Below, piece after piece: positions 22,023-53,759 of a DNA stretch of 64,000 nt; the first letter of the stretch is position 1; each line of letters begins with the position of its first letter. A program made the position numbers and the translations under genes. The notes beneath the pieces are model-generated. The model was given only the letters and a program-made list of their open reading frames with translations, ran no database searches and was not told where the DNA came from. The DNA is from Gammaproteobacteria bacterium (lineage in GTDB: Bacteria > Pseudomonadota > Gammaproteobacteria > Eutrophobiales > Eutrophobiaceae): contig QKIY01000009.1 of NCBI GenBank assembly GCA_003250975.1, forward strand, positions 30,727-94,726, in the 5' to 3' direction.

Positions 22023-23024
22023 ATGCGAACCCCGGGATTGAAAATTGCAAATAAGTTTCAGCGTGTGTGTGTCCCTGTTGCGCCGGCTCACCCGGTCCCT
22101 GACATTGTGGATGATGCACGGGAGGGGCTGCTTAGGCCGCCCCGCAGCCTGCCACCCAAATATTTCTACGATGAGGCAGGATCACTACTCTTCACTAAAA
22201 TTTGCGAAACCCGAGAATACTACCCGACCCGCACAGAAGATAGACTGTTGGCCTCACATGCGCCGGACATTATCAGGATAGCCAGGCCTGGTCAGATTAT
22301 CGAACTGGGCAGCGGTAATTCGCAAAAGACGCGGCGCCTCTTTGATGCCTGTGAGAATACCGATCATACCTGCACTTATGCACCCTTTGATGTCTGTGCC
22401 CCCATCCTGGAAGAGACGGCTGATCAGCTTCAGGCAGAGTATGGCTGGCTGCATGTCACACCTTTACTGGGCGATTATCATGCCGGCCTTGACCATCTTC
22501 CGGCATTTACGGGGCGACGCCTGTTTGTCTTTCTGGGCAGCACCATTGGCAACTTCGAACCGGGAGAGGCCCACACATTCCTGCGGGAGATTACGGCTAT
22601 CATGAATCCCGGGGATTACCTGTTGATTGGTGCAGACAGGGTAAAGGATACGCGGGTGCTGGATAGTGCCTATAATGATGCCGAAGGGATAACGGCTGCT
22701 TTCAACCTGAATTTACTCGAGGTCCTGAATCGTGAACTGGATGCTGATTTTAATCCCTGCCACTTCCGGCACAAGGCGGAGTTTGTTCCTGAAAGATCCA
22801 GGATAGAGATGAAACTGGTTTGCAATGCCACACATCAAATCACACTGAAGGAACTCGATGAAACGATCGCCTTCCTGCCCGATGACGAGATCCTCACTGA
22901 AGTCAGCTATAAATTTACTCATGATGGCGCAGAAAAATTACTGGAAGAAGGCGGTATGAATGTCGTAAAGCACTATGAACCGGAAAACAGGTATTTCTCG
23001 TTGATACTTGGACAATTTATCTAG
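22023..23024 (+). CDS. egtD: EgtD-family SAM-dependent L-histidine N-alpha-methyltransferase (ergothioneine/hercynine-type). It is stand-alone.
   Basis: The 333-aa protein is collinear with mycobacterial EgtD (LPPKYFYDEAGSLLFTKICETREYYPTRTE, ELGSGNSQKTRRL, VFLGSTIGNF, TEVSYKF). No egtB/egtC/egtE is present in the window. Confidence 0.8.
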   Translation: MRTPGLKIANKFQRVCVPVAPAHPVPDIVDDAREGLLRPPRSLPPKYFYDEAGSLLFTKICETREYYPTRTEDRLLASHAPDIIRIARPGQIIELGSGNSQKTRRLFDACENTDHTCTYAPFDVCAPILEETADQLQAEYGWLHVTPLLGDYHAGLDHLPAFTGRRLFVFLGSTIGNFEPGEAHTFLREITAIMNPGDYLLIGADRVKDTRVLDSAYNDAEGITAAFNLNLLEVLNRELDADFNPCHFRHKAEFVPERSRIEMKLVCNATHQITLKELDETIAFLPDDEILTEVSYKFTHDGAEKLLEEGGMNVVKHYEPENRYFSLILGQFI

Positions 23025-23483: not shown

Positions 23484-24389
23484 GTGAGGCATATTACTGA
23501 GTCTGAATGGATATTCGGGGCTATTTTTCTATTGGCCTACTGTTTCTTCGCGTATCTTGATTTCTATCTTGCTAACGAAATCACCACATCAATTTCCTAT
23601 GTTTCACTCCTGGGCTTTGGCCTTTTGGCGCGCTCAAAACGACTGACGATAATAATTGGCGTCATTAGTGTTGTGACCACTGCAACCGGCATGTATCTCA
23701 TACCATCAGAACTGGTTGATACTACCAACCGTCAACTTGTAATCATTGCCATTATTACCATTACCATTACCAGTCATATTTTCATGGATCGACAACAGGC
23801 CTTTGAAGAAAAACTTTACAGGTTTGCGAGCACAGATGCGCTTACCGGCGTGGCAAATAGGAGGACCCTGGCAAACGAGATTGAACAACGTCTTTCCGAA
23901 GCACTGCGCTACAAGAAGGACCTGTCGTTGATCCTTTTTGACCTTGATAACTTCAAGCAAATTAATGACAAGTATGGGCACCTGGCTGGTGATGAGATTC
24001 TAAAAAAGATCACGGAAATCTGCCTTAAATGGTTACGTATTACAGACGTCATGGGGCGTTATGGCGGGGAGGAATTCATGGTCGTCTGCCCAAACACATC
24101 ACTGGAAGGAGCTTTGACGCTGGGAGAAAGGATCAGGGTCGCCATTCAAAATGCTGCTTTTCGTTTTGACAATGATATTATCAAGATCACCGTCAGTGTC
24201 GGGGTCACCGAACTAAGGGGGCATCTGAGCAGAGGAGAACAATCCACCATCAAGATGCAATTGTCTCACTACCTGATAGATGCTGCCGATACCGCTCTCT
24301 ATAATGCCAAGTCTTCAGGCAAAAACTGCGTTATTGCATTTGACCCGGAAAAAGACAGGGTCGCTTCTGAACAGACCGTACCTGTCTGA
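23484..24389 (+). CDS. Membrane-anchored diguanylate cyclase (GGDEF domain).
   Basis: The protein has an N-terminal multi-TM region and a GGDEF domain with an intact GGEEF active site (RYGGEEFMVV). The start is GTG. Confidence 0.85.
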   Translation: MRHITESEWIFGAIFLLAYCFFAYLDFYLANEITTSISYVSLLGFGLLARSKRLTIIIGVISVVTTATGMYLIPSELVDTTNRQLVIIAIITITITSHIFMDRQQAFEEKLYRFASTDALTGVANRRTLANEIEQRLSEALRYKKDLSLILFDLDNFKQINDKYGHLAGDEILKKITEICLKWLRITDVMGRYGGEEFMVVCPNTSLEGALTLGERIRVAIQNAAFRFDNDIIKITVSVGVTELRGHLSRGEQSTIKMQLSHYLIDAADTALYNAKSSGKNCVIAFDPEKDRVASEQTVPV

Positions 24390-35594: not shown

Positions 35595-36830
35595 ATGCTA
35601 ACTGACAAAAAAGATTCTATGGAATCGTTTAATTTCAGCGATCTCAGTTTTATGATTGTTGATGATGATCCCATAGTCCTCAAACTGGCTGAAAAAATCC
35701 TGACCGAGGCCGGTGCCAAGTCCATAGTGTCTGCCTGTAACGGGCTAGAAGCCATAAACAACCTTTCTGCACCTGACGCCGTATTTGATGTAATCCTGTG
35801 TGATCTGAACATGCCCGAAATGGATGGTGTAGAATTGTTACACAAGATTGCAGAGAAGAATTATACCGGGGGTATCCTGCTACTCAGCGGGGAAGATGAC
35901 CGCATGCTGGAAGCAGCCTATGATCTCGCCAGGGCACATCAACTAAACATGATCGGTGCAATCCCCAAGGACCTCCTTGTGTCTGATACAGTCAACAGGA
36001 TCCGGGAAAACTACACGCCCTACCACTCCAGGGAAAAGGATATACAAGCGGAGCCGATTACAATAAACGAGCTTGAATCCGGTATTCAAAACAAAAATAA
36101 CTCTCTCATTTTATATTTTCAGCCCAAGGTATCTATCAACAATATGGATATTATCGGTGTCGAGATACTTGCTCGCTGGCAACATCCCGATAGGGGAACA
36201 CTACTGCCAAATACATTTATCCCCTTGGCAGAGGAAGCGGGGTTGATAAACGTACTGACATACTCAATTTACAGACTTGCACTGAAGCAGATTAGCCAAT
36301 GGCAAAAGGCAGGTATTAATCTGAATGCCTCGATCAATGTCTCTGTAAATTCATTTGCCTCACCTGAATTTTCCGAATTTCTTATAAATGCGGCCAATGA
36401 ATACGGTGTTGATACTTCAAGAATAATACTGGAAGTGACTGAGAGTGAAATCATGACAGATGCCATCAAGTGCCTGGAAATGATGATGCATCTCAGAATG
36501 AAAAAATTCGGTCTGTCAATTGATGATTTCGGCACCGGACATTCTTCCATGGAGAAACTGAAAACCATTCCCTTTACAGAACTTAAAATTGATCGGGCAT
36601 TTGTCAGAGATGCGGACAAGAATTCCGCAGCAAAGTTTATCGTTGAATCCAGTGTAGATCTGGCTAAAAAACTCAACATGAAAATTGTGGCTGAAGGGGT
36701 AGAAAACCGCGGTAATTGGGACCTGGTAGAACAACTAGGTTGTGACCAGGTTCAGGGATTTTATTGTGGTGCACCCATGTCGAATCCGGATCTCATGGAT
36801 TACCTGAGATACTGGAAAGGCCCCCACTGA
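35595..36830 (+). CDS. Response-regulator receiver (REC) domain fused to an EAL c-di-GMP phosphodiesterase.
   Basis: The REC domain has the acidic pocket and phospho-acceptor (IVDDDP...DVILCDLNMPEMDG). The EAL domain has ELLARWQHP, the catalytic EVTES glutamate, and DDFGTG. The ORF-track start is a TTG one codon upstream. Confidence 0.8.
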   Translation: MLTDKKDSMESFNFSDLSFMIVDDDPIVLKLAEKILTEAGAKSIVSACNGLEAINNLSAPDAVFDVILCDLNMPEMDGVELLHKIAEKNYTGGILLLSGEDDRMLEAAYDLARAHQLNMIGAIPKDLLVSDTVNRIRENYTPYHSREKDIQAEPITINELESGIQNKNNSLILYFQPKVSINNMDIIGVEILARWQHPDRGTLLPNTFIPLAEEAGLINVLTYSIYRLALKQISQWQKAGINLNASINVSVNSFASPEFSEFLINAANEYGVDTSRIILEVTESEIMTDAIKCLEMMMHLRMKKFGLSIDDFGTGHSSMEKLKTIPFTELKIDRAFVRDADKNSAAKFIVESSVDLAKKLNMKIVAEGVENRGNWDLVEQLGCDQVQGFYCGAPMSNPDLMDYLRYWKGPH

Positions 36831-41289: not shown

Positions 41290-41379
<90 letters not shown>

Positions 41380-42997: not shown

Positions 42998-43480
42998 ATG
43001 CCTTCATTCGATATAGTTTCCGAAGTAGATACACATGAACTTACAAATTCGGTAGACCAGGCCAACCGGGAAATTACCAATCGCTTTGATTTCAAGGGTA
43101 CTGATTCACGTGTTGAACTGGCAGAGAGCCTTATCACGCTTATAGCCCCTGCCGAATTCCAGATAAAACAAATTGAAGATATCCTGACAAACAAGATGTC
43201 TAAAAGGGGAATTGACATCAATTGCCTGGAGAGAGGCGACATATCTGAAAGCAATAATCAGGCAAGACTGGTATTCACAGTGCGTCAGGGAATTGACAAG
43301 GAAACGGCAAAAAAACTGATAAAGCTGATTAAGGAATCCAAACTGAAAATCCAGTCAGCTATTCAGGGTGAACAGGTAAGGGTAACGGGTAAAAAACGAG
43401 ACGACTTGCAGGAGGCCATCCACCTCCTGAAAAACAGCAAGCTGGACTTGCCCCTGCAATTCGTCAATTTCAGGGATTAG
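42998..43480 (+). CDS. yajQ: YajQ family (UPF0234) nucleotide/c-di-GMP-binding protein.
   Basis: The 160-aa protein begins MPSFDIVSEVDTHELTNSVDQANREITNRFDFKG..., the YajQ family signature. An AGAGGA RBS is present. Confidence 0.85.
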   Translation: MPSFDIVSEVDTHELTNSVDQANREITNRFDFKGTDSRVELAESLITLIAPAEFQIKQIEDILTNKMSKRGIDINCLERGDISESNNQARLVFTVRQGIDKETAKKLIKLIKESKLKIQSAIQGEQVRVTGKKRDDLQEAIHLLKNSKLDLPLQFVNFRD

Positions 43481-43623: not shown

Positions 43624-43842
43624 CTATTCCAGGTTGCCACCTTGTGTGAGCCCATGGGCGATAAGGGCAGCATTCATCGCTCCTGCATTGGTACCCATGA
43701 TTCCTTCTATTGCAATGCGTTCATCCTCGAGTATCCTGTCGAGGACGCCCCAGGCGAAAGCACCATGCGATCCACCGCCCTGCAGGGCAAGATTAATGTG
43801 CTTATTTACAGTCGGTCTATGGCGTTTTGCTTTATGTGCCAT
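43624..43842 (-). pseudogene. Remnant of a patatin-like phospholipase gene: only the N-terminal 72 codons are present.
   Basis: The fragment encodes the oxyanion-hole motif GGGSHGAFAWGVL and the GTNAGA nucleophile elbow (GxSxG with Asn in place of Ser). The ORF stops after 72 aa and no continuation exists in any frame of the 143 bp downstream. Confidence 0.55.
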
Positions 43843-43946: not shown

Positions 43947-46451
43947 TTAGTCTTTTTTATCCAACTGTGATTCAATATCTGAAAACAGGTTTTTTGTAGC
44001 ATTTTCAGCTTCTCTTTTTGCGGCCTCAGCCCTTTCCTTGATACGTTTAACATGTTCCGAATGTGATATCACCCTTGACGCACTTCGTTCCAGTCTATCC
44101 TGCTCATCCATAAACATGGCGAGATCTTCTTCTACCTGCCTTCCGAGATCATCGTTTTTCAACTGCTGAACCTCTATCTCCTGACGTCTGATCTGTTCTG
44201 CGGTCTGCACATTAACCTTGGCCTGATGTGCATTTTCCAGGTTCTTTTCAGCCTGCCTCAACTTGTATTCAGCCATCCTCATCTGATCTTCAGCTTCTTT
44301 CCTGGCCTTTTCATCAAGGGCATCGGCCTGTGCAGCACGAAGTTTTTGTGCTTCAAGGGCCGCTGCAGCCTTGGCTGCTTCAGCTTCCCTTTTGGTCCTT
44401 TCTATGTCATTCAGAACTTCCTTTATCTTGCTGGATTCCTTTTCCAGCTGCTTCTTTTCATGTTCAAGCCTTGCACGTTCCTTGGCTCTTTCTTCTTCAA
44501 ACTGCTTTTTATATTCATCTATAATGCTTTTTGCTTCTTCTGCTGCTGCCTTGCGTGCTGCTTCAGCCATGGCATTTTTCTTGTTAGCCTCTTCCAGCTC
44601 GGCATTTGCTTTAGCTACTTCCTCGGCGAGTGTACGTCTTTCTGCCTCAAGCTTGGCCTTTGCCTTGGCCTGGGCCTCCTTTTCCATATTAGCCTGCTCT
44701 TCACGTTTCCTGCTGGCCTCTTCTTCCAGGGCCTTATGCGATTCTTCAAGTTTCTTTTTAACCTCATCGGCACTCTGTAATTTTTCCCTGGCCTCGGCAG
44801 CTTCCTGTTCAAGCTTTTCCCGCTCCTTCCTTATTTGCTCCTCAGCCTCCTGCTTCATTTTTTGGAGCTTCTCCATCTCCTCGGTATTCTTGGAATAAAT
44901 CTCCTCCAGTTTCTTCTTTTCGTCGGCAAGACGTTTTTCCGTTTCTTCCTTTAATTTTGCAATCTTTCGGGCTTCTTCTTCCTTGAACCTTCTGGCCTCT
45001 TCTTCGGCTGCTTTCTTTTCAATCTCGAGTTTTTTTCTCTCATCTTCCAGTTCCTGTTTCTTGCGCCTTATATCAGTTGTATCCTCATCGTCCCTGGCTT
45101 CGGCCAGCCTATGACTAGTGTCCTCGAGCTTCAATTCATTCTTGGCAATGTCCGCATCGATCACGGCTGAACGTACTGCCGGATCATCATTATCCTCTGA
45201 TTCAAATACAGGAGCCCGTTGTGTTCTGCGTTTTGGCTTGCCTTCCTTTGAGGATGGTTCCGGGCGTGTGGTTTTTGCCGGAGCCGGCCTGTCTTTTTTC
45301 AGAGTAGGTGCTTCTGCCTTCGCTGGAGTCAGTTTTTCTTTTTTCGGTGCAGTCGCTTCTGCCTCTGAACCCAGTGACGGTATCGAAGCCAATCCGCCTT
45401 TTAGGACGCTGACATTAAATCCGTTATTAATCAGGGTGAAAGCAGCAGCTGAACTGCGACCACCTGAATCACAGCAGATAATATATTGTTTGTTCTTATC
45501 CAGTTTATCCAGCTGCGCCCGCAACATGTTAAATGGAATATTGATGCTGCCCTTAATACTGGATTCCTTAAATTCATCTTTAAAACGGACATCAAGCCAG
45601 ACTGCACCAGCTTCCACCAAGGTCTTGCCCTGATCATAAGTGACTTCGCTCATTGAAGGTATTTTTACCAGTGTGATGAAGTTTTCCTTGCTGAGCTTCA
45701 TCAAGATACCATCGGTCTTCATAATGACAGACGCATTGCGTTTACCCCCCATCAGCAACGCTTCTTCACCAAAACTGTCACCAGGAGACAAATCAGCAAG
45801 CTTGACCGGCTTGGAACCGGGGGATGGTATTCTGGAAACTTCACACTGGCCATCCTGAATAATGTAATAACTGTCACCGGGATCGCCCTGCTTGATTACC
45901 GTATTACCTGCCTTGAATTCCAGGGGCTCAAGCATGACAAATAATTGCTGGATATTGGCGGTTGGCAACTGGCTGAAGATTTCGGATTGCAACATCTTGG
46001 TCATCCAGTCGACCGCATCATCTTCATCCCCGATTTCGCTGACTTCAAAATGTCGACTGGCGGTTATAGTTGTACTATCCGACTTGTCTGCAACAATTGT
46101 CCTGTCGACAGCAGCCTTATCCAGTTGGAGAACCATGCAGTCTTCCACGGCCCTGGCGGTAAACTGGCGTGGCAAAAGGCGAGCCATGGCATAGCGTGCA
46201 CTGTCTGTACCTCCTGTAATGGTACTTTTCACTTCCCTGTTCGAAAGCATTTCGATCACGCCCTCTAGCAGGTAATACGTAAAATTGTCTCTGTCTCCCT
46301 GTTTAAAGACGACGTTCCTTTTCCCGTACTTGAACACCTTCCCCATCTGGATAATCTCGTTCTGGGCCTGGGTAGACAGCTCATCGAACGGCACCAAGGT
46401 CCTTATCAGTTCAACATACGGTTTTTTGTCTAGTTCTTTATTAAAGATCAT
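43947..46451 (-). CDS. Large multidomain protein with two cyclic-nucleotide-binding (CAP-family) domains, a rhodanese domain and a ~450-aa K/E-rich coiled-coil tail.
   Basis: The first CNB domain is degenerate (residues ~30-150). The second is canonical, with GDSFGEEALLMGGKRNASVIMK. The rhodanese domain has an active-site Cys in ICCDSGGRS. From ~aa 380 to the end the sequence is low-complexity, charged and heptad-like (EEARRFKEEEARKIAKLKEETEKRLADEKKKLEE...). Confidence 0.7.
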   Translation of the reverse strand: MIFNKELDKKPYVELIRTLVPFDELSTQAQNEIIQMGKVFKYGKRNVVFKQGDRDNFTYYLLEGVIEMLSNREVKSTITGGTDSARYAMARLLPRQFTARAVEDCMVLQLDKAAVDRTIVADKSDSTTITASRHFEVSEIGDEDDAVDWMTKMLQSEIFSQLPTANIQQLFVMLEPLEFKAGNTVIKQGDPGDSYYIIQDGQCEVSRIPSPGSKPVKLADLSPGDSFGEEALLMGGKRNASVIMKTDGILMKLSKENFITLVKIPSMSEVTYDQGKTLVEAGAVWLDVRFKDEFKESSIKGSINIPFNMLRAQLDKLDKNKQYIICCDSGGRSSAAAFTLINNGFNVSVLKGGLASIPSLGSEAEATAPKKEKLTPAKAEAPTLKKDRPAPAKTTRPEPSSKEGKPKRRTQRAPVFESEDNDDPAVRSAVIDADIAKNELKLEDTSHRLAEARDDEDTTDIRRKKQELEDERKKLEIEKKAAEEEARRFKEEEARKIAKLKEETEKRLADEKKKLEEIYSKNTEEMEKLQKMKQEAEEQIRKEREKLEQEAAEAREKLQSADEVKKKLEESHKALEEEASRKREEQANMEKEAQAKAKAKLEAERRTLAEEVAKANAELEEANKKNAMAEAARKAAAEEAKSIIDEYKKQFEEERAKERARLEHEKKQLEKESSKIKEVLNDIERTKREAEAAKAAAALEAQKLRAAQADALDEKARKEAEDQMRMAEYKLRQAEKNLENAHQAKVNVQTAEQIRRQEIEVQQLKNDDLGRQVEEDLAMFMDEQDRLERSASRVISHSEHVKRIKERAEAAKREAENATKNLFSDIESQLDKKD
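43950..45314. repeat. Low-complexity GAA/AAG-rich coding repeat region (the K/E-rich coiled coil) within the 834-aa CDS.
   Basis: Purine-rich codon runs on the coding strand produce many long spurious antisense ORFs (44226-45858). Confidence 0.5.
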
Positions 46452-46568: not shown

Positions 46569-47255
46569 ATGAATCAATTAACACAATTAATAGCGGAACT
46601 GGGCATGGGCATTGGCTTAGCGGCAATTGTCCCGGCCCTGCTTGGCCTAGTTCTCATAGTCGCCGCCCTGAAACGCCTCAGACACCGGAAACTATTCTCC
46701 GCCGGTTTTAACGGGACACTGGGTCTCTGCCTGTTATTCAGCGCGGTAATCTTGCTTCTTGTTGCAATAAATATTCATACATATCAGAGACTTACATATG
46801 AAGAGCCCATACTGACGATCAGTTTTCAACAACTTGCCGAGAAACAATATACAGCGACCTTAGACTACGCTAACGGCCAGAAACAACACTACAGCCTGAC
46901 CGGTGATGAATGGCAGATTGATGCAAGGGTCATTAACTGGTCACCTCCGGCAAGAATTTTGGGACTTAATGCACTCTACCGCCTAGAGAGGCTGCATGGC
47001 CGTTATCGATCCATCGATCAGGAGCGGCAATTGGAAAGAACAGTCTATCCACTGTCGGAGGAGCGCGGCCTAGACATCTGGTCACTGGCAAAAAAGTATC
47101 AGGACCGCGTGTCATGGATAGACACATATTTTGGCAGCGCGACCTACCTGCCAATGGAAGACGGCGCCACTTACGAGGTATTAATCACTCAGAACGGTCT
47201 GATTGCCAGACCAGTGAATACAGCCGCCAAAACAAAACTGCACCAATGGAAATAG
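46569..47255 (+). CDS. Hypothetical membrane protein (two N-terminal TM helices plus a soluble domain).
   Basis: The 228-aa protein has no family I recognise. It is convergent with the sensor kinase of the sortase locus, with a 22-bp gap. Confidence 0.5.
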   Translation: MNQLTQLIAELGMGIGLAAIVPALLGLVLIVAALKRLRHRKLFSAGFNGTLGLCLLFSAVILLLVAINIHTYQRLTYEEPILTISFQQLAEKQYTATLDYANGQKQHYSLTGDEWQIDARVINWSPPARILGLNALYRLERLHGRYRSIDQERQLERTVYPLSEERGLDIWSLAKKYQDRVSWIDTYFGSATYLPMEDGATYEVLITQNGLIARPVNTAAKTKLHQWK

Positions 47256-47277: not shown

Positions 47278-49383
47278 TTACTGCCTGAAATTGATCCTGA
47301 AACACACACCGCTGGAATCGGCAAGGTTTTCCGCAATAATTGTTCCATTATGAAACTCGGCAATAATCCTAGCGATATAAAGCCCGAGGCCGAGATGCGG
47401 GCTGCCTTTCCTGTCCTTGTCACGGACAGATACCATCGAATTGAACAGTTCCCCCTTCATCTCTTCGGGTAAGAGCGGCCCCCGGTTGACAATACTGATG
47501 AAACTGTCAGCTCCATCAGTGTGCAAGGAAATAATAACTGGCTTGTCCGGCACACTGAAATCGACTGCATTTGAAACCAGCTTGTCGATCATCTGCATAA
47601 ACAGATCCGGCGCAATATTCATTACATGTTTGATCGGGGGGAGATTCAGTTCAAACGGGTGTGGTGCATAGGCAAGGCGGTAACCGTCAATAGCCTGGGT
47701 CAACAGCTCACAAATATTAACCCTTACTTTTTCTGTCCCCTGCAGTGCCTGCTCCAGCCGTGCAGCTTCACTCAGACGGGTAACCAGGGTATTCAGGCGT
47801 TGAATACCATCCCGCGCCCGTTCGATATAGACCTGTTTGTCCGTTTCAATATCTGAATCCAGATTGTCCAGAGATGATTGCACTACTGCCATGGGTGTAC
47901 GCAACTCATGCGAAAGTTTCCCCGCCATTCCTTCAAGATAATGGTTATATTGCCTGAGCCTTTCCAGGATTGCGGCGTAGTTACGAGACAGATCACCAAT
48001 TTCATCACTGGCCTGACTCACCGGCATATCGCCCACCACTCGGCCATACTCATCTATCGCGGTGGCCGCTTCTCTGCTTAAACGCCTCAATCTCACAGAC
48101 AACCTGCTGGCGAAGAAAAGCAGCAGTAGAGTTATTATAAAAAACAGTAGCAAGGTCCTGTTAACTAGGCCAACCAGAGCATCACGTTGCAATAACTGGA
48201 TATTATTGGTTGTTTCCTCGGCCACAACTACGCCCCTGATCTCATCAAACACCCATACAGGAGCGGCGGCGGACACGATGACAGCCTTTTTATCAGGCGA
48301 TGATCGCCAGCGAGAACCGGCATTGCCCCTGAGTGCCGATCTGATCTCCTCGCCGTATAACCGGGAGGCGCCTGCGAGATCATCTTTGAACCGGTCAGTT
48401 ACCGGAGGCAACACCAGTTTATAAAAGAGGTTGAGGGGGTGTTTTTTAAAATCCTGCTTCAGGCTGCCGGAATTGGCAAGCACCTGCCCCCTGCTGTCCA
48501 GTACCCAGATCCTCCTGCCCGGACTGCTGTGCAGGCGAGTAATCAAAGTTTCCAGATAATTATCCGGCAGTATGACCCGCCCGGGACGGTTCAGGGTGTT
48601 TTTTCCGGCAGTACCAGTGTAATGGAAATCAATCTGTGTGCCCCTTTTGTCGGTGTCAGCAACCATTATGCCTAGTCGCTCATGTACTAGGTTAAGAGGC
48701 AGGGCAATCTCAAGGTCATACCCTTCTTGGGAGGGCTGCCAGCTGGCAACGATGTTTGTTTTATATCGAATGAATTTCTTTTCGATCCAGTCGACCTCAA
48801 CAGTTTCAATCTGAAATGGATTGAACATCCCCGGCACAGAGGGTGCAAGATAGTAACGTTCCTTCACCACATAATCATCCCCGATAACCAGTATCACGTG
48901 ATCACTGTCAATGATCGTTTCACTGTCAGGCTTATGGTAGATAGTCTGGTCGTCCCTGATACGAAGTAATATATGCAGGGTATTCTCATGGATACCCGCA
49001 ACTAGCCTAAACGCTACTGGTTCCGTAATATTGCCTGCATCGTCGGCAAATGACTGCGGATAAACCTCCGACCAGTCAAGATATTGCACCCAGTCATCCA
49101 GATACCCGTCTGTCTGCATCGGTGTTTCAATCTTGTGTATGAACAGAGTCGGATCTACGGCCGTTTGTCTGTCAGGAAACTGGCGGTAACTCTGATGCAG
49201 GGAGGTGGCAATGGCTTTTGCGGTATCGAGTAATGAGGTCTCGAGGTTGCTCCTCAATCGATACTCCATTTCACGCATGTATTCATAGGCAATATAAGGC
49301 AGGGTTAATATCGCGATGGAGAGCAATAAAAGTTTAACGCGAATTGTAAAGCGGAATCGGGGACGTGTATTAATATCTGCCAT
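47278..49383 (-). CDS. Sensor histidine kinase with a large periplasmic domain, the PdsS-like kinase of the proteobacterial dedicated sortase system.
   Basis: The 701-aa protein has an N-terminal TM segment, a ~370-aa periplasmic region, a second TM segment, HisKA (SHELRTPM) and a HATPase_c domain. It lies immediately downstream of the OmpR-type regulator in the same operon. Confidence 0.7.
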   Translation of the reverse strand: MADINTRPRFRFTIRVKLLLLSIAILTLPYIAYEYMREMEYRLRSNLETSLLDTAKAIATSLHQSYRQFPDRQTAVDPTLFIHKIETPMQTDGYLDDWVQYLDWSEVYPQSFADDAGNITEPVAFRLVAGIHENTLHILLRIRDDQTIYHKPDSETIIDSDHVILVIGDDYVVKERYYLAPSVPGMFNPFQIETVEVDWIEKKFIRYKTNIVASWQPSQEGYDLEIALPLNLVHERLGIMVADTDKRGTQIDFHYTGTAGKNTLNRPGRVILPDNYLETLITRLHSSPGRRIWVLDSRGQVLANSGSLKQDFKKHPLNLFYKLVLPPVTDRFKDDLAGASRLYGEEIRSALRGNAGSRWRSSPDKKAVIVSAAAPVWVFDEIRGVVVAEETTNNIQLLQRDALVGLVNRTLLLFFIITLLLLFFASRLSVRLRRLSREAATAIDEYGRVVGDMPVSQASDEIGDLSRNYAAILERLRQYNHYLEGMAGKLSHELRTPMAVVQSSLDNLDSDIETDKQVYIERARDGIQRLNTLVTRLSEAARLEQALQGTEKVRVNICELLTQAIDGYRLAYAPHPFELNLPPIKHVMNIAPDLFMQMIDKLVSNAVDFSVPDKPVIISLHTDGADSFISIVNRGPLLPEEMKGELFNSMVSVRDKDRKGSPHLGLGLYIARIIAEFHNGTIIAENLADSSGVCFRINFRQ

Positions 49384-49414
49384 CTTGATTAGTCCTGCTG
49401 ATCAGTTACTTTTA

Positions 49415-50104
49415 TCAGGCATTCCAGCGGTAACCCAGACCATAGACCGTCTCGATGCAGTCAAAATCCTGATCAACAGCGATAAACTTTTTCCTGATCC
49501 TCTTTATATGTGATGTGACTGTCCCTTCATCCACAAAGATTCTTGCTTCACTCATCAATTGCTCCCTGCTCTTCACATGACCCGGTCTGCTGGCAAGGGA
49601 ACAGATGATCCAGAATTCTGTCAATGTCAGGTCAATTTTCCTGTTCTGCCATTCAGCCAGCAGACGGTTTTTATCTATCAAGAGGTTTCCGTGGTGAATA
49701 ATGTCTTCAGCCGGGACTGGGCTACGCAATGCATCAACCCTTCTGAACAAGGCAGCAATCCTGGCCAGCAATTGCGGCAAGGTTATGTCCTTGGTCAGAT
49801 AATCATCTGCGCCGAGCCTGAGACCCGAGATTGTATCCAGGTCAGAGTCCCTCGCTGTGAGAAATATAATCGGAACTGTCTGCGAAAGAACCCGTAGCTC
49901 ACGACAGAGATCAAATCCTCCCTCGTTCTCCTCACCCAGGCCAATATCTATTAGCACCAGGTCAGGCAGGCTCGACTTGAAGTGCCTTAATGCATCCTGT
50001 CGGCTGGAAAAGCTACTCACCCTGTATCCCTGTTTGACCAGGGCATCTGAATAGTTTTCCCGGATAGCTTTTTCGTCTTCAACCAGCGCTACAGTTTTAA
50101 CCAT
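49415..50104 (-). CDS. OmpR/PhoB-family response regulator (PdsR-like).
   Basis: The protein has REC (VALVEDEKAIR...DLVLIDIGL) plus a winged-helix trans_reg_C domain (LTLTEFWIICSLASRPGHVKSREQLM...GLGYRW). The start was taken at the ATG with a GAGGA RBS (MVKTVALVEDE); the ORF track begins 5 codons upstream. Confidence 0.75.
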   Translation of the reverse strand: MVKTVALVEDEKAIRENYSDALVKQGYRVSSFSSRQDALRHFKSSLPDLVLIDIGLGEENEGGFDLCRELRVLSQTVPIIFLTARDSDLDTISGLRLGADDYLTKDITLPQLLARIAALFRRVDALRSPVPAEDIIHHGNLLIDKNRLLAEWQNRKIDLTLTEFWIICSLASRPGHVKSREQLMSEARIFVDEGTVTSHIKRIRKKFIAVDQDFDCIETVYGLGYRWNA

Positions 50105-50291
50105 GCTACATCCTCGCATTACCCCGCTGCCAATTTATAACATTATCAGGGAAAAATATTCCCCCCGCGAACAATTACCATAATTTCGCCATATTTCATC
50201 GTTTCATTTCCCTTTTTTCAGCGCAGTTCCGCCACTGAGAGACGCTTAAATATATCGCTGTAACCCACTTGATTAATACAGGAGAACTGAA

Positions 50292-50999
50292 ATGAAACAT
50301 ACATTCATAACCCTTGCCCTGGTAAGCCTTTTTGCCAGCTCATCCAGCATGGCAGATGAACAGTCAACCCGGGCCATACACGAGACCGCCGGTTTCGGTA
50401 CCGGTGCACTGATAGGCGGACTTATCGCCGGGCCTCCGGGGATTGTCCTTGGTGCCATTGGCGGGACGATTTATGGAAATCGCCAAGGCGAAAAAGAAAA
50501 CCATGTTACCGCAGTAGAAACAAAACTTCAGGACAGGGAAATTGAGCTGGCTCTGGTGAAAAATGAACTTTCACAGACCCGGACTGAATACGCCCGCAAA
50601 TTACAAAAAGCAGCCCTGGGGGACCGGCGTGCCCCGTTGGATAAACTGTCCGATGGTGTGTCCTTATCCGTCTACTTCCGCACCAACGAGAGCATGGTTG
50701 ACGCCGGGTTGAAACCACACCTGCAAAAGCTTGTCACGCTTATCAAGGACATACCGGAAATATCGATCAGCCTGAATGCCTATGCCGATCAACGAGGAGA
50801 CGACTCACATAACCTTGAGTTGAGCCGTGCACGCGCTCATGCAGTTGAGGCCGAACTTATTGAGGCGGGACTGCCCGGCAATCGCATCTACCGGCATGCA
50901 CATGGTGAAAGTAACGCCAAAGCGGCTGAGGGTGATATCGAAGGCTACATCTTTGACCGTCGCGTGGACATTGAACTCACTCTGGATACGGAAGTGTAA
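50292..50999 (+). CDS. OmpA-family protein (PdsO-like component of the dedicated sortase system).
   Basis: The protein has a signal peptide and a glycine-zipper segment (GFGTGALIGGLIAGPPGIVLGAIGGTIYG). The C-terminal OmpA-like peptidoglycan-binding domain has NAYADQRGDDSHNLELSRARA. Confidence 0.7.
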   Translation: MKHTFITLALVSLFASSSSMADEQSTRAIHETAGFGTGALIGGLIAGPPGIVLGAIGGTIYGNRQGEKENHVTAVETKLQDREIELALVKNELSQTRTEYARKLQKAALGDRRAPLDKLSDGVSLSVYFRTNESMVDAGLKPHLQKLVTLIKDIPEISISLNAYADQRGDDSHNLELSRARAHAVEAELIEAGLPGNRIYRHAHGESNAKAAEGDIEGYIFDRRVDIELTLDTEV

Positions 51000-51025
51000 A
51001 CATCAACCGAGCGGAACAAGCCGAT

Positions 51026-53149
51026 ATGAAGATCAATAAAACACACCTGCTGGCGAATACTGTGCTGTGTATCCTGGAGAGTCTCCTTGCAGCGATTATA
51101 GGCACTGTATTTCTGGTGTTGCTTGTCCTGTTGCTGTCAGGCGTCGCCAGCGCCGAAACCACGGAAGGTTTGGCTGCAACGGACATCATCACTGTGCGTG
51201 ACGCCGGGGAAGTCACACGCGGTACCCTGTTATTCCGACACTCAGAAAATTTCCGCAGCGCCCCGATCCTAGAAACCGGGGTCCAGATGGATATCACGGG
51301 GATGATTGTCCGTGTCAGGGTGCGGCAACGCTTTCACAACCCTGACACGGTCTGGCAGGAAGGGATCTACGTATTCCCACTACCGGAAGATGCCGCAGTG
51401 GATCATCTGCGCATGCAGATCGGCGAGCGTGTGATTGAAGGACAAATCAGGGAAAAAGAAACTGCAAGGAAAGAATATCAGCAGGCGCGCGACAGCGGTA
51501 AAAAGGCCAGCCTGGTAGAACAGGAACGTCCGAATATCTTCACCACCTCGGTGGCAAATATCGCACCGGAGGAAGAGATCACGGTAGAGATCGAGTACCA
51601 GCAGACAGTACGTTATGACTCGGGTGAATTTCGCCTGCGTTTCCCGATGGTCGTGGCACCACGCTATATCCCTGGCAAGACAGTTATAAAAGGGTTCAGC
51701 GGCACTGGCTGGGCGGTCAACACGGATCAGGTCGAGGATGCGGCCCGCATCACTCCCCCTGTCCTGTATCCCGACGAGAGGTTAATCAATCCCGTGATGA
51801 TCAGGATAAAACTCAATGCAGGATTCCCGCTGGAACAGATCACCAGTTCCTACCACAACATCCTGATCGATCAAATCGACTCTTCTACGTACAACATTCA
51901 ATTGGAGCAACAGACCATGGCAGATCGCGACTTTGAACTTTACTGGCTGCCTGAATCGAAAGACGCACCCCAGGCCGCCTTCTTCAGGGAACATCAGAAA
52001 AGCAGGGATTACGGACTGATCATGATGCTCCCACCAATGCAAGAGCGTGCCGAGACCCTGAACCGCGAGGTGATCTTTGTTATAGATACCTCAGGTTCAA
52101 TGGCAGGCACTTCCATCGTGCAAGCCAAGGCGGCCCTGGTTCTGGCACTCGAACGTCTGAAACCGGGTGACAGTTTCAATATCATTGAATTCAATTCAAA
52201 CACCAGCCAATTATTCAACTGGCCCCACCCGTTCAATCACCAGTCATTGCGGCAAGCAAAAGAATATGTGCGTCGTTTACAGGCAGATGGCGGTACCGAG
52301 ATGTTACCAGCCCTGGATTTGGCACTGACAGATAACAATGATCGTTCAGCGGTCAGACAGGTGATCTTTCTCACCGACGGCAGCATCGGCAATGAGAATG
52401 CCCTGTTTCGAACCATCAGCCGGAAACTGGGCAGGAGTCGCTTGTTCACCATCGGTATTGGCTCCGCGCCTAATTCACACTTCATGACCCGCGCCGCCCG
52501 ATTCGGACGCGGAACCTATACGTACATCGGCGATGTGAATGAAGTGCAGGAAAAAATGGCCACCCTGTTCAGTAAACTGGAAAGTCCGGTACTTACCGAC
52601 ATCCAGATAGACTGGCAAGGCGCCGATAATGTTGAAGCCTGGCCGCAAAAGATCCCGGACCTCTACCTGGGCGAACCACTGCTGGTCAGTGTCGCGTCCA
52701 CTACTCTACCGGAAAAAATAAATATCTCTGGCGTCGTCTCCGGTGCGCTCTGGCAAAGCACCATGCAACTCGACGGCCATGGTCAGCATGACGGGGTCCA
52801 TGTCCTCTGGGCGCGCAAGAAGATTGCAGCGCTCATGGATAACCTTAACCAGGTCTCGGAAAAAAATTCCCTGCGGCAGGAGATCATTGATACCGCCCTT
52901 CGCCATCATCTGGTAAGCCGCTTCACCAGTCTGGTCGCCATTGATGTTACGACGGCGAGAGATAAAGGCGTTCCGTTCCACTCTTCTGCCTTGCCAGTCA
53001 ACCTTCCTGAAGGATGGAAATATGAAAAGGTGTTCGGCCAGTTGCCACGCACAGCAACCGATGCCGAGCAGAAAATACTGATCGGGCTGTTGCTATTGTT
53101 GTTCAGTGTGTTCCTCGTACTGGGCCGCCACTATGTCTTACCCGACTAA
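51026..53149 (+). CDS. Sortase target protein of the marine-proteobacterial type, with VIT and von Willebrand factor A domains and a C-terminal LPxTG-like sorting signal.
   Basis: The 707-aa protein has a signal peptide, a VIT domain, and a vWA domain with the MIDAS motif (DTSGSM). The C-terminus is ...GQLPRTATDAEQKILIGLLLLLFSVFLVLGRHYVLPD: LPRTAT, then a hydrophobic TM segment, then a charged tail. Confidence 0.75.
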   Translation: MKINKTHLLANTVLCILESLLAAIIGTVFLVLLVLLLSGVASAETTEGLAATDIITVRDAGEVTRGTLLFRHSENFRSAPILETGVQMDITGMIVRVRVRQRFHNPDTVWQEGIYVFPLPEDAAVDHLRMQIGERVIEGQIREKETARKEYQQARDSGKKASLVEQERPNIFTTSVANIAPEEEITVEIEYQQTVRYDSGEFRLRFPMVVAPRYIPGKTVIKGFSGTGWAVNTDQVEDAARITPPVLYPDERLINPVMIRIKLNAGFPLEQITSSYHNILIDQIDSSTYNIQLEQQTMADRDFELYWLPESKDAPQAAFFREHQKSRDYGLIMMLPPMQERAETLNREVIFVIDTSGSMAGTSIVQAKAALVLALERLKPGDSFNIIEFNSNTSQLFNWPHPFNHQSLRQAKEYVRRLQADGGTEMLPALDLALTDNNDRSAVRQVIFLTDGSIGNENALFRTISRKLGRSRLFTIGIGSAPNSHFMTRAARFGRGTYTYIGDVNEVQEKMATLFSKLESPVLTDIQIDWQGADNVEAWPQKIPDLYLGEPLLVSVASTTLPEKINISGVVSGALWQSTMQLDGHGQHDGVHVLWARKKIAALMDNLNQVSEKNSLRQEIIDTALRHHLVSRFTSLVAIDVTTARDKGVPFHSSALPVNLPEGWKYEKVFGQLPRTATDAEQKILIGLLLLLFSVFLVLGRHYVLPD

Positions 53150-53759
53150 AAAAATGCTGTACCTCTGTTTACTCACCACCCTCTCCTTTTGCGGCTTGTG
53201 GCAGATGGGACAGGGCACCTATATCCACGCCAAGGCAATCCTCGCGCAATACCTCCTCGAGTCGGCCTGGTCAGAAACACTGCTGGGGGTAAAGAAGGAG
53301 GTGAAACCATGGCCCTGGGCAGATACCTGGCCAGTCAGCCGGCTCACCGCACTCCGCCTTGGAATCAGCCGCATCGTCCTGGCCGGGGCAAGTGGTTCAT
53401 CACTTGCCTTCGGCCCAGGACATCTTTTTGGCACAGCCTATCCAGGTGAACAGGGTAATAGTGTAATTGCTGGGCACAGGGATACACATTTCCGGTTTTT
53501 ACAACAGCTGACAGACGGCGACATCCTGCAACTTGAGACGGAAGACGGAACCAACAGGCAATACCAGGTTATCCAGACTCGGGTTATTCACGAGAGCGAG
53601 GTGCAATATCTGCAAGAAACACCTGATAACCGATTAACACTGATTACCTGTTTCCCCTTTAACAGCCCCACTCCGGGCGGACCTCTGCGCTTCGTGGTAA
53701 TCGCCATGGAGCTACCAAGGACCGCAAATGGTACTCACACACATGATTCATTGATCTGA
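53133..53759 (+). CDS. Sortase of the class found in the proteobacterial dedicated sortase system.
   Basis: The protein has a catalytic His (VIAGHRDTHF), the catalytic Cys in TLITCFPF and a conserved Arg (LRFVVIAM). The start was taken at the ATG overlapping the target-gene end; the ORF-track start is an upstream GTG. Confidence 0.8.
   Translation: MSYPTKKMLYLCLLTTLSFCGLWQMGQGTYIHAKAILAQYLLESAWSETLLGVKKEVKPWPWADTWPVSRLTALRLGISRIVLAGASGSSLAFGPGHLFGTAYPGEQGNSVIAGHRDTHFRFLQQLTDGDILQLETEDGTNRQYQVIQTRVIHESEVQYLQETPDNRLTLITCFPFNSPTPGGPLRFVVIAMELPRTANGTHTHDSLI

Follow-up and report, generated by a model that had tools for sequence, protein, structure and literature searches.

A gammaproteobacterial protein family that combines a predicted cyclic-nucleotide sensor with a rhodanese domain and a conserved helical stalk

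Beyond transcription factors of the CRP/Vfr type, only a small number of the effectors through which cAMP or cGMP act in bacteria are understood. A stretch of 64,000 nucleotides from a Gammaproteobacteria bacterium (assembly GCA_003250975.1, contig QKIY01000009.1, positions 30,727–94,726; hereafter the window) carries a gene that raises the question of what cyclic-nucleotide-binding (CNB) domains do when they are followed by a rhodanese domain and a very long, charged tail. In the list of open reading frames (ORFs) the gene lies at 43947..46451 on the minus strand and encodes 834 amino acids (aa) plus a stop codon, exactly as given in a preliminary description of this DNA, which was made from the sequence alone. 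An identical protein is present on public contigs. That description gave the domain order as a degenerate CNB domain, a canonical CNB domain, a rhodanese domain with an active-site Cys and a long charged helical tail, and took the order to belong to no described family. Both statements hold. Pfam finds CNB and rhodanese domains on the full-length 834-aa protein, leaving its C-terminal half without any match, and a literature search for a CNB–rhodanese fusion found no relevant paper. Homologs are named in databases only as ‘cyclic nucleotide-binding domain-containing protein [Gammaproteobacteria bacterium]’ or ‘CRP-like cAMP-binding protein/rhodanese-related sulfurtransferase’. Here we show that the gene is real and vertically inherited, and that it comes from a large family of mostly uncultured Gammaproteobacteria. 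Each part on its own is of a known kind; what appears uncharacterised is their fusion, together with the conserved stalk and the exchange of tails across the superfamily.

A tandem of cyclic-nucleotide-binding domains

The N-terminal head begins with two CNB domains (residues 1 to ~265). Pfam cNMP_binding (PF00027) matches the protein in two stretches (E = 1.1e-28; 99.5 bits against a cut-off of 27.5), the best of which covers residues 178–262. In the PDB, the protein is closest in sequence to PKG and PKA regulatory subunits (E values of 5e-27 to 1e-21), and Foldseek matched the first ~275 residues of an AlphaFold2 (AF2) model to the tandem CNB-A/B domains of PKG and the PKA regulatory subunit (PKA-R), with an E value of about 1e-18 and ~20% identity over ~275 columns. 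Modelled with a 32-sequence homolog alignment (A1), CNB-A, CNB-B and the rhodanese domain all fold with predicted local distance difference test (pLDDT) scores of about 80–90. Conservation across a wider set was read from 269 retrieved members with a complete head.

CNB-B (residues 148–265; 45657..46010, on the minus strand like every other part of the gene) is the canonical domain, as judged by Pfam, PDB sequence matches, Foldseek and the conservation of its phosphate-binding cassette. It begins with an invariant D148-W149-M150 and contains the motif quoted in the preliminary description, GDSFGEEALLMGGKRNASVIMK. In the cassette (G224–V242; window 45726–45782), residues F227, G228, E229, E230, A231, R238, N239 and A240 are invariant in A1 (FGEEA...RNA[ST]); it is canonical in 254 of the 269 wider relatives. 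The ligand cassette of CNB-B is intact, and the domain is predicted to be ligand-competent.

CNB-A (residues ~15–125; 46077..46409) retains the fold, as indicated by the second stretch of the Pfam match, by A1 and by AF2 (pLDDT 81–90). Its cassette, ARYAMARLLPRQFTARA (residues 85–101; window 46149–46199), has no FGE motif in A1, and the motif is found at this position in 0 of the 269 relatives. In its place, 215 of them have a QPRQxxA-like motif, and residues L92, P94, R95, Q96 and A101 are invariant in A1. The division into one degenerate and one canonical domain, proposed in the preliminary description, is confirmed. Between the two domains runs an acidic, disordered loop (residues 126–147; 46011..46076) with a net charge of −6, pLDDT below 50 at 126–144 and a variable sequence in A1.

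NCBIfam adds a sub-threshold, partial match to the CNB domain of mycobacterial Pat. A transcription factor of the CRP/FNR type can be set aside: neither Pfam nor NCBIfam reports an HTH_Crp-type or other DNA-binding family, and it is the rhodanese domain that follows CNB-B. Because there is no DNA-binding domain and the name reflects the CNB part only, the database label ‘CRP-like’ is misleading for annotation.

A rhodanese domain at a fixed spacing

The rhodanese domain (residues 266–361; 45369..45656) is defined by Pfam, by partial NCBIfam matches and by its conserved loop. Pfam Rhodanese (PF00581) matches residues 276–355 with an E value of 4e-17 (63 bits; cut-off 22.2). The active-site Cys, first noted within ICCDSGGRS, lies in the C-X4-R loop C327-D-S-G-G-R-S333 (window 45453–45473). 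C327, G331, R332, S333 and S334 are invariant in A1, where the loop reads C327-D-[ST]-G-G-R-S-S. Of the 269 relatives, 255 have a C-X4-[RKT]-S loop, which in most of them reads CD[TS]GxRS. Profile and six-residue C-X4-[RT] loop both place the domain among the rhodanese sulfurtransferases (PF00581), and sulfurtransferase activity is predicted on these grounds.

The length of the loop also bears on the earlier suggestion of a ‘phosphatase-like’ protein. The branch that holds Cdc25 phosphatases and arsenate reductases has a seven-residue loop, C-X5-R, with the pattern CE[F/Y]SXXR (PMC2887360). The loop studied here is C-X4-R (CDSGGR), which is the sulfurtransferase length and rules out that branch, so the phosphatase-like label does not apply. 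Assignment to a named rhodanese failed as well: NCBIfam returns partial matches to PspE, GlpE, ThiI-C and the MoeB rhodanese (E values of 1e-10 to 7e-5), all of which, at 23–38 bits, lie far under the equivalog cut-offs of 70–449. PDB matches to this part include the rhodanese domains of CoA-disulfide and CoA-persulfide reductases.

Counted from the cassette Arg, the catalytic Cys comes 89 aa further on in 188 of 238 relatives and 90 aa further on in another 43 (231 of 238 together). Because this distance is near constant, the rhodanese domain follows CNB-B at a fixed spacing.

A conserved helical tail

The C-terminal ~470 residues consist of a disordered linker rich in Pro, Ala and Lys and a 413-aa, all-helical region rich in Glu, Ala, Lys and Arg. 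The linker (residues 362–421; 45189..45368) has AF2 pLDDT values of 32–40, spans columns of about 400–560 in A1 and carries a net charge of +5 and nine Pro residues; its sequence is hypervariable and its length in relatives ranges from 25 to 132 aa (median 49). The helical region falls into two parts. The proximal part (residues 422–604; 44640..45188), delimited by AF2 helices, periodicity and the positions of insertions and deletions (indels), is variable in length and comprises a short conserved helix (424–451; DPxV[KR]ASVLEAEL), helix H1 (455–569), the H1/H2 break (~560–574) and the start of H2 (575–710). The distal part (residues 605–834; 43950..44639) is a conserved module that contains the remainder of H2, a tight turn at 711–713 and H3 (714–830), and it terminates in the conserved motif HxKRIKERAxAAK...L(x)DIxSQL. 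An AF2 model of the tail alone shows long antiparallel helices (pLDDT 83.7; predicted TM-score, pTM, 0.35).

Averaged over the family, the tail has conserved positions occupied by hydrophobic residues or Ala, at spacings of 3, 4 and 7 and with a period of 3.52–3.60 (3.58–3.60 in the proximal part). Such core-like positions make up 22–25% of every long helix, against the 28.6% expected if all a/d positions were filled, and many of the core residues are Ala; A622, A629 and A636 are heptad-spaced and invariant in A1. The family-averaged seam is that of a canonical heptad coiled coil, whereas the single sequence alone gives a weak signal. As read from the alignment, a genuine Leu/Ala seam lies beneath a salt-bridged surface. 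Indels of at least 10 aa, mapped in 179 homologs, concentrate at 440–495 and 530–605, around the H1/H2 break, and residues 605–830 are essentially indel-free. Together with the tight turn at 711–713, this is the pattern expected of a length-matched antiparallel helix pair.

Its invariant residues, its periodicity, the indel-free stretch and the pLDDT of the model show that the tail is not low-complexity filler but a helical domain that is ordered, conserved and specific to this family; it corresponds to no known domain and has no domain match in Pfam, NCBIfam or the PDB. The preliminary description was right to call the tail long, charged, heptad-like and helical. Its view of a low-complexity sequence gives way to that of an alignable and ordered one with invariant residues, and the likeness it saw to TolA or to eukaryotic structural coiled coils is homology to no such family. 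A TolA- or TonB-like protein is also excluded on other grounds: no family of this kind is reported by Pfam or NCBIfam for the whole protein or for the tail, no transmembrane (TM)-like stretch is visible by eye and the head domains are of cytoplasmic types.

One head, several tails

A word-filtered protein search returned 437 relatives. The best 120 among them are without exception 736–928 aa long, have the same two Pfam domains and align with ~99% of the query at 40–67% identity. One genome per species was scanned, which turned up at least 518 loci; the best 80 all come from metagenome-assembled genomes (MAGs), nearly all labelled Gammaproteobacteria, and some bear the label Thiotrichaceae, Ectothiorhodospiraceae, Chromatiales or Ca. 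Eutrophobius. With the head (residues 1–365) as query, an exhaustive phmmer search identified at least 1311 representatives of 50% identity clusters at E < 1e-30. Their total lengths range from 340 to 1795 aa, and the head is N-terminal throughout, except in a few multi-CNB giants. The window protein therefore belongs to an unnamed CNB–CNB–rhodanese head superfamily, defined by an alignable N-terminal head of ~350 aa and the fixed spacing from CNB-B to the Cys.

What follows the head differs. The same tail end as in the window protein (‘KRIKERA...DIASQLG’) closes 139 of the 269 members. In 37 others, among them the relatives P0216, P0179, P0248, P0196 and P0193 and a protein of locus L081, the head is followed by a very long coiled coil rich in Gln, Leu, Glu and Arg, a TM helix, a Pro-rich segment and a C-terminal FGE-sulfatase domain (Pfam E values of 1e-51 to 1e-63); P0193 has, in addition, a PP2C phosphatase inserted after the rhodanese domain. 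The ~1000-aa coiled coil of this branch, if extended, would measure on the order of 150 nm. The long relatives give weak, sub-threshold Pfam matches to coiled-coil families, for example intermediate Filament, and a borderline match to GAS. The remaining members have other or partial tails (84) or are shorter than 400 aa (9). Whether the core also occurs without a tail, a check proposed in the preliminary description, can be answered: a complete tail-less form of 359 aa (L066), encoded on an 811-kb contig with the usual downstream neighbour retained, ends just past the rhodanese domain. Because the same head is found with no tail, with the stalk tail or with the TM/FGE-sulfatase tail, we regard the head as the constant unit and the tail as an exchangeable appendage. 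In some genomes two paralogs lie side by side in divergent orientation (L062, 2900–5356 and 6001–9600; L059, 571–1581 and 2417–3889).

Genomic context and inheritance

The preliminary description had proposed that the gene may be horizontally acquired and that the AT- and GAA-rich codon usage of its tail deviates from that of its neighbours. Neither proposal survives comparison with the 39 other long ORFs of the window and with related genomes. The GC content of the gene is 0.467, against 0.509 ± 0.038 in the other ORFs; GAA makes up 0.79 of the Glu codons in the head and 0.68 in the tail (0.62 ± 0.16 in other genes); and in relative synonymous codon usage (RSCU) the whole gene lies at a distance of 0.101 from the pooled genes and its tail at 0.14 (others 0.106 ± 0.024, range 0.059–0.174). 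GC at third codon positions (GC3) is likewise ordinary. The strong purine skew of the coding strand in the tail follows from its amino-acid composition (E/K/A/R). Moreover, orthologs at 52–67% identity keep the same neighbours: a divergent gene for a putative 228-aa membrane protein, YajQ, DUF3301, ApbE and the kinase of a sortase system. Of 79 genome loci, 32 have YajQ nearby and 31 the sortase-system kinase. Conserved synteny together with ordinary GC, GC3 and RSCU leads us to reject horizontal acquisition. A promoter and terminator scan of the locus found nothing beyond shuffled expectation.

The divergent neighbour (46569..47255, plus strand) starts 117 bp from the start of the gene and appears membrane-like from hydrophobic N-terminal segments seen by eye; it matches no Pfam or NCBIfam family. 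It lies immediately upstream and divergent in 34 of the 79 loci. An obligate membrane anchor would not be missing, as this protein is, from 28 loci with the same tail end, and we rejected that role for it. The 228-aa protein is a clade-level syntenic partner and could be a functional one.

On the downstream side, a 72-aa fragment (43624..43842, minus strand) matches the N terminus of Pfam Patatin (E = 1e-10; profile positions 1–51 of 191). The Ser of its lipase GxSxG motif has been replaced (GTNAG) and a stop follows. None of the 79 related loci has the fragment, a pseudogene remnant that stands outside the CNB–rhodanese system. In 29 related loci the place directly downstream, on the same strand, is taken by a Fae-like gene (formaldehyde-activating enzyme family, PF08714) at a median gap of 67 bp (for example, L002 10352–10900 and L005 8645–9190). 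This gene is 80–100% identical across loci whose CNB–rhodanese proteins share only 40–67%, and the two genes may form an operon. No Fae gene is found anywhere in the 64-kb window, where the patatin fragment fills its slot; the window has lost the Fae-like gene.

The gene thus sits between a patatin remnant and a sortase locus, as had been described; the families TIGR03785 and TIGR03788 of the latter score above cut-off. The locus (47278–53756) is a complete proteobacterial dedicated sortase system with a histidine kinase (TIGR03785), a response regulator, an OmpA-family protein, a VIT-VWA target (TIGR03788) and the sortase. It is followed by an MscS-type channel. A tRNA-Ser (CGA) gene (41290–41379, plus strand) lies ~2.6 kb from the 3′ end of the gene, within a stretch of lower GC (0.41–0.45 over about 40.7–43.2 kb). 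It does not mark an island boundary for our gene, since the intervening ApbE, DUF3301 and YajQ genes are syntenic in relatives. The other genes of the window are those of an ordinary chromosome: BipA, MetRS, RnfC/D/G, CysG, Mrp, an AddAB-like pair and c-di-GMP enzymes. They include, all on the plus strand, an EgtD-like histidine-specific methyltransferase (22023–23021; Methyltransf_33, E = 2e-103), a GGDEF protein (23691–24386), a response-regulator–EAL protein (35595–36827) and YajQ/DUF520 (42998–43480). The last three are related to c-di-GMP; members of the YajQ/DUF520 family have been described as nucleotide-binding.

A proposed cyclic-nucleotide-gated rhodanese

On balance, though with no great confidence, we favour the view that the protein is a cytoplasmic second-messenger effector in which a PKA-R-like sensor of cyclic nucleoside monophosphates (cNMPs) gates the fused rhodanese domain, while the stalk oligomerises or positions the protein. 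The preliminary description had suggested a cNMP-gated sulfurtransferase on a scaffold or tether, which stays the best reading, or a phosphatase-like scaffold, which the C-X4-R loop speaks against. In the proposed mechanism, cAMP or cGMP would bind CNB-B and shift its C-terminal helix or lid; ligand-driven movement of this kind is established for PKA-R, Epac and CRP. Through the fixed junction between CNB-B and the rhodanese domain, the lid movement would expose or occlude Cys327, and access to Cys327 would in turn switch persulfide formation or transfer, or a Cys-based interaction, on or off. It is the fixed spacing at which the rhodanese domain follows that leads us to propose this gating by CNB-B. 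The role of CNB-A would be that of a docking or regulatory domain of non-canonical type. The stalk might oligomerise the protein, or place the head at a set position or distance from an anchoring partner, or both, with the conserved distal end of the tail binding that partner. The modularity of the family supports the idea that the head is a signalling unit and the tail a positioning device.

In its most far-reaching form, this would amount to a new class of output: a cNMP-gated persulfide or sulfurtransferase head on a folded-back coiled-coil stalk, its position fixed by the invariant distal end, through which cAMP or cGMP control localised sulfur trafficking or protein persulfidation and not transcription, with a sister branch anchored by a TM helix and a periplasmic FGE-type domain. 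We think it unlikely that the picture will prove right to that extent.

Several points weigh against a gated effector. We infer allosteric gating solely from the fixed junction and by analogy. The ligand, be it cAMP, cGMP or another nucleotide, cannot be read from the RNA[ST] cassette. The 64-kb window contains no class III cyclase and no cNMP phosphodiesterase, and the 79 related loci contain no conserved neighbour that would suggest a sulfur-relay partner. The 228-aa neighbour, a possible anchoring partner, is missing at 28 loci whose CNB–rhodanese proteins share the tail-end motif. Lastly, the tail analysed as a single sequence resembles a single alpha-helix (SAH), with 51% charged residues, 17% strong hydrophobics, a periodicity of 3.6 and not 3.5, and 90 opposite-charge pairs at i/i+4 against 50 ± 5.8 in shuffled sequences.

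These last statistics, together with an a/d occupancy by strong hydrophobics of 0.39 in the best register, are what would be expected if the tail were an ER/K SAH, that is, a stiff monomeric ruler with no coiled-coil packing. The impression is reversed by the family-averaged periodicity and the conserved Leu/Ala seam: i/i+4 pairs are enriched, yet the seam is present, its 3/4/7 spacings account for 22–25% of positions and A622, A629 and A636 do not vary. Helix breaks fall at conserved sites, and the indel-free distal module implies length-matched packing, so that we give an SAH little credence. Another possibility is that the stalk is the main functional part of the molecule. The protein would then be a structural or cytoskeletal coiled coil that forms filaments or a polar or membrane scaffold, with a head that regulates assembly or recruits clients and transfers no sulfur. 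Such a role fits a conserved, heptad-seamed stalk that makes up about half of the protein, the weak Filament and borderline GAS matches of the long relatives, the TM anchor of the sister branch and the polar localisation of Pseudomonas aeruginosa CbpA, which is said to depend on cAMP. A pure scaffold, however, would have no need of the Cys loop kept by 255 of 269 relatives; the tail-less L066, in the same genomic context, indicates that the head functions alone; and none of the known filament formers, crescentin, FilP and DivIVA among them, was detected as a homolog. We consider a purely structural role improbable.

An alternative that keeps the head central would make the rhodanese domain itself a sensor. 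Cys327 would report sulfide, persulfide or oxidative status, and the head would integrate cNMP with redox or sulfur signals and pass the output through the stalk to a partner. Non-catalytic, regulatory rhodanese modules are known in general. The Cys is invariant, no gene for a sulfur acceptor such as TusA or DsrE is adjacent, and the family is abundant in MAGs labelled Thiotrichaceae, Ectothiorhodospiraceae and Chromatiales, lineages of sulfur oxidisers; this last link is anecdotal, since most MAG labels say merely ‘Gammaproteobacteria’. Against a sensor stands the canonical sulfurtransferase loop, CD[TS]GGRS, which is near that of PspE- and GlpE-type enzymes, and the sequence does not separate sensing from catalysis; we think this alternative, too, has a low probability. 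Far less credible is a recently acquired foreign gene, either eukaryote-like island cargo or an anti-phage cNMP effector of the Pycsar type. The adjoining patatin fragment, the tRNA-Ser gene, the eukaryotic PKG and PKA-R among the best PDB sequence matches and a PADLOC match to PycTIR (E = 4.8e-9) could be taken as its signs. Yet synteny is conserved at 40–67% identity, codon usage is normal, the patatin fragment is unique to the window locus and the family is huge and gammaproteobacterial. A PycTIR effector in particular is ruled out, because the PADLOC match covers the CNB part only (profile positions 30–120 of 288), there is no TIR domain and the window holds no cyclase. These alternatives are not all mutually exclusive.

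If CNB-B does gate Cys327, cyclic-nucleotide signalling would be connected to sulfur or persulfide chemistry, and the ~365-aa head, with its natural tail-less form, would make a tractable system. The protein is a good candidate for the first non-transcriptional cNMP effector tied to sulfur chemistry, a function that is wholly inferred. Its modular tails (none, a hairpin stalk of ~410 aa, or ~1000 aa with a TM helix and FGE domain) amount to a natural experiment on the purpose of long bacterial coiled coils.

Relation to known systems

The window protein would work most like a tandem CNB sensor of the PKA-R/PKG type fused to a rhodanese of the PspE/GlpE type. With PKA-R and PKG, it shares two consecutive CNB domains linked by helical N3A / B–C elements and a canonical FGE...R-x-A cassette in the second domain. 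It differs from them in having no kinase partner, inhibitor site or docking/dimerisation domain, in the loss of the cassette Gly-Glu from CNB-A and in its output, which would be a fused rhodanese domain. As judged by its reported domain organisation and localisation, the closest bacterial analogue is CbpA (PA4704) of P. aeruginosa. CbpA reportedly combines an N-terminal degenerate CAP/CNB domain with a C-terminal, cAMP-binding CNB domain in a PKA-R-like arrangement, and is said not to be a transcription factor but a protein with cAMP-dependent polar localisation. It is not known to have a rhodanese domain or a long helical tail.

Single-domain rhodaneses (PspE and GlpE, and the modules of ThiI, MoeB/MoeZ and CoA-persulfide reductase) share the fold and the catalytic Cys in a six-residue loop with the domain described here, which, unlike the PspE/GlpE-type proteins, is embedded between a putative cNMP sensor and a stalk. 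The stalk invites comparison with other long antiparallel hairpins, namely those of HlyD/LipC/MacA, prefoldin, PspA/Vipp1/ESCRT-III, IpaB and CT398/HP0958; it has no sequence homology to any of these and is two to three times longer. The FGE-sulfatase sister branch belongs to the same superfamily. Its head is homologous over residues ~10–360 at 40–45% identity and shares both the Cys loop and the cassette, whereas its tail, rich in Gln, Leu, Glu and Arg and two to three times longer, is unrelated in sequence and terminates in the TM helix and the FGE-sulfatase domain, the latter periplasmic.

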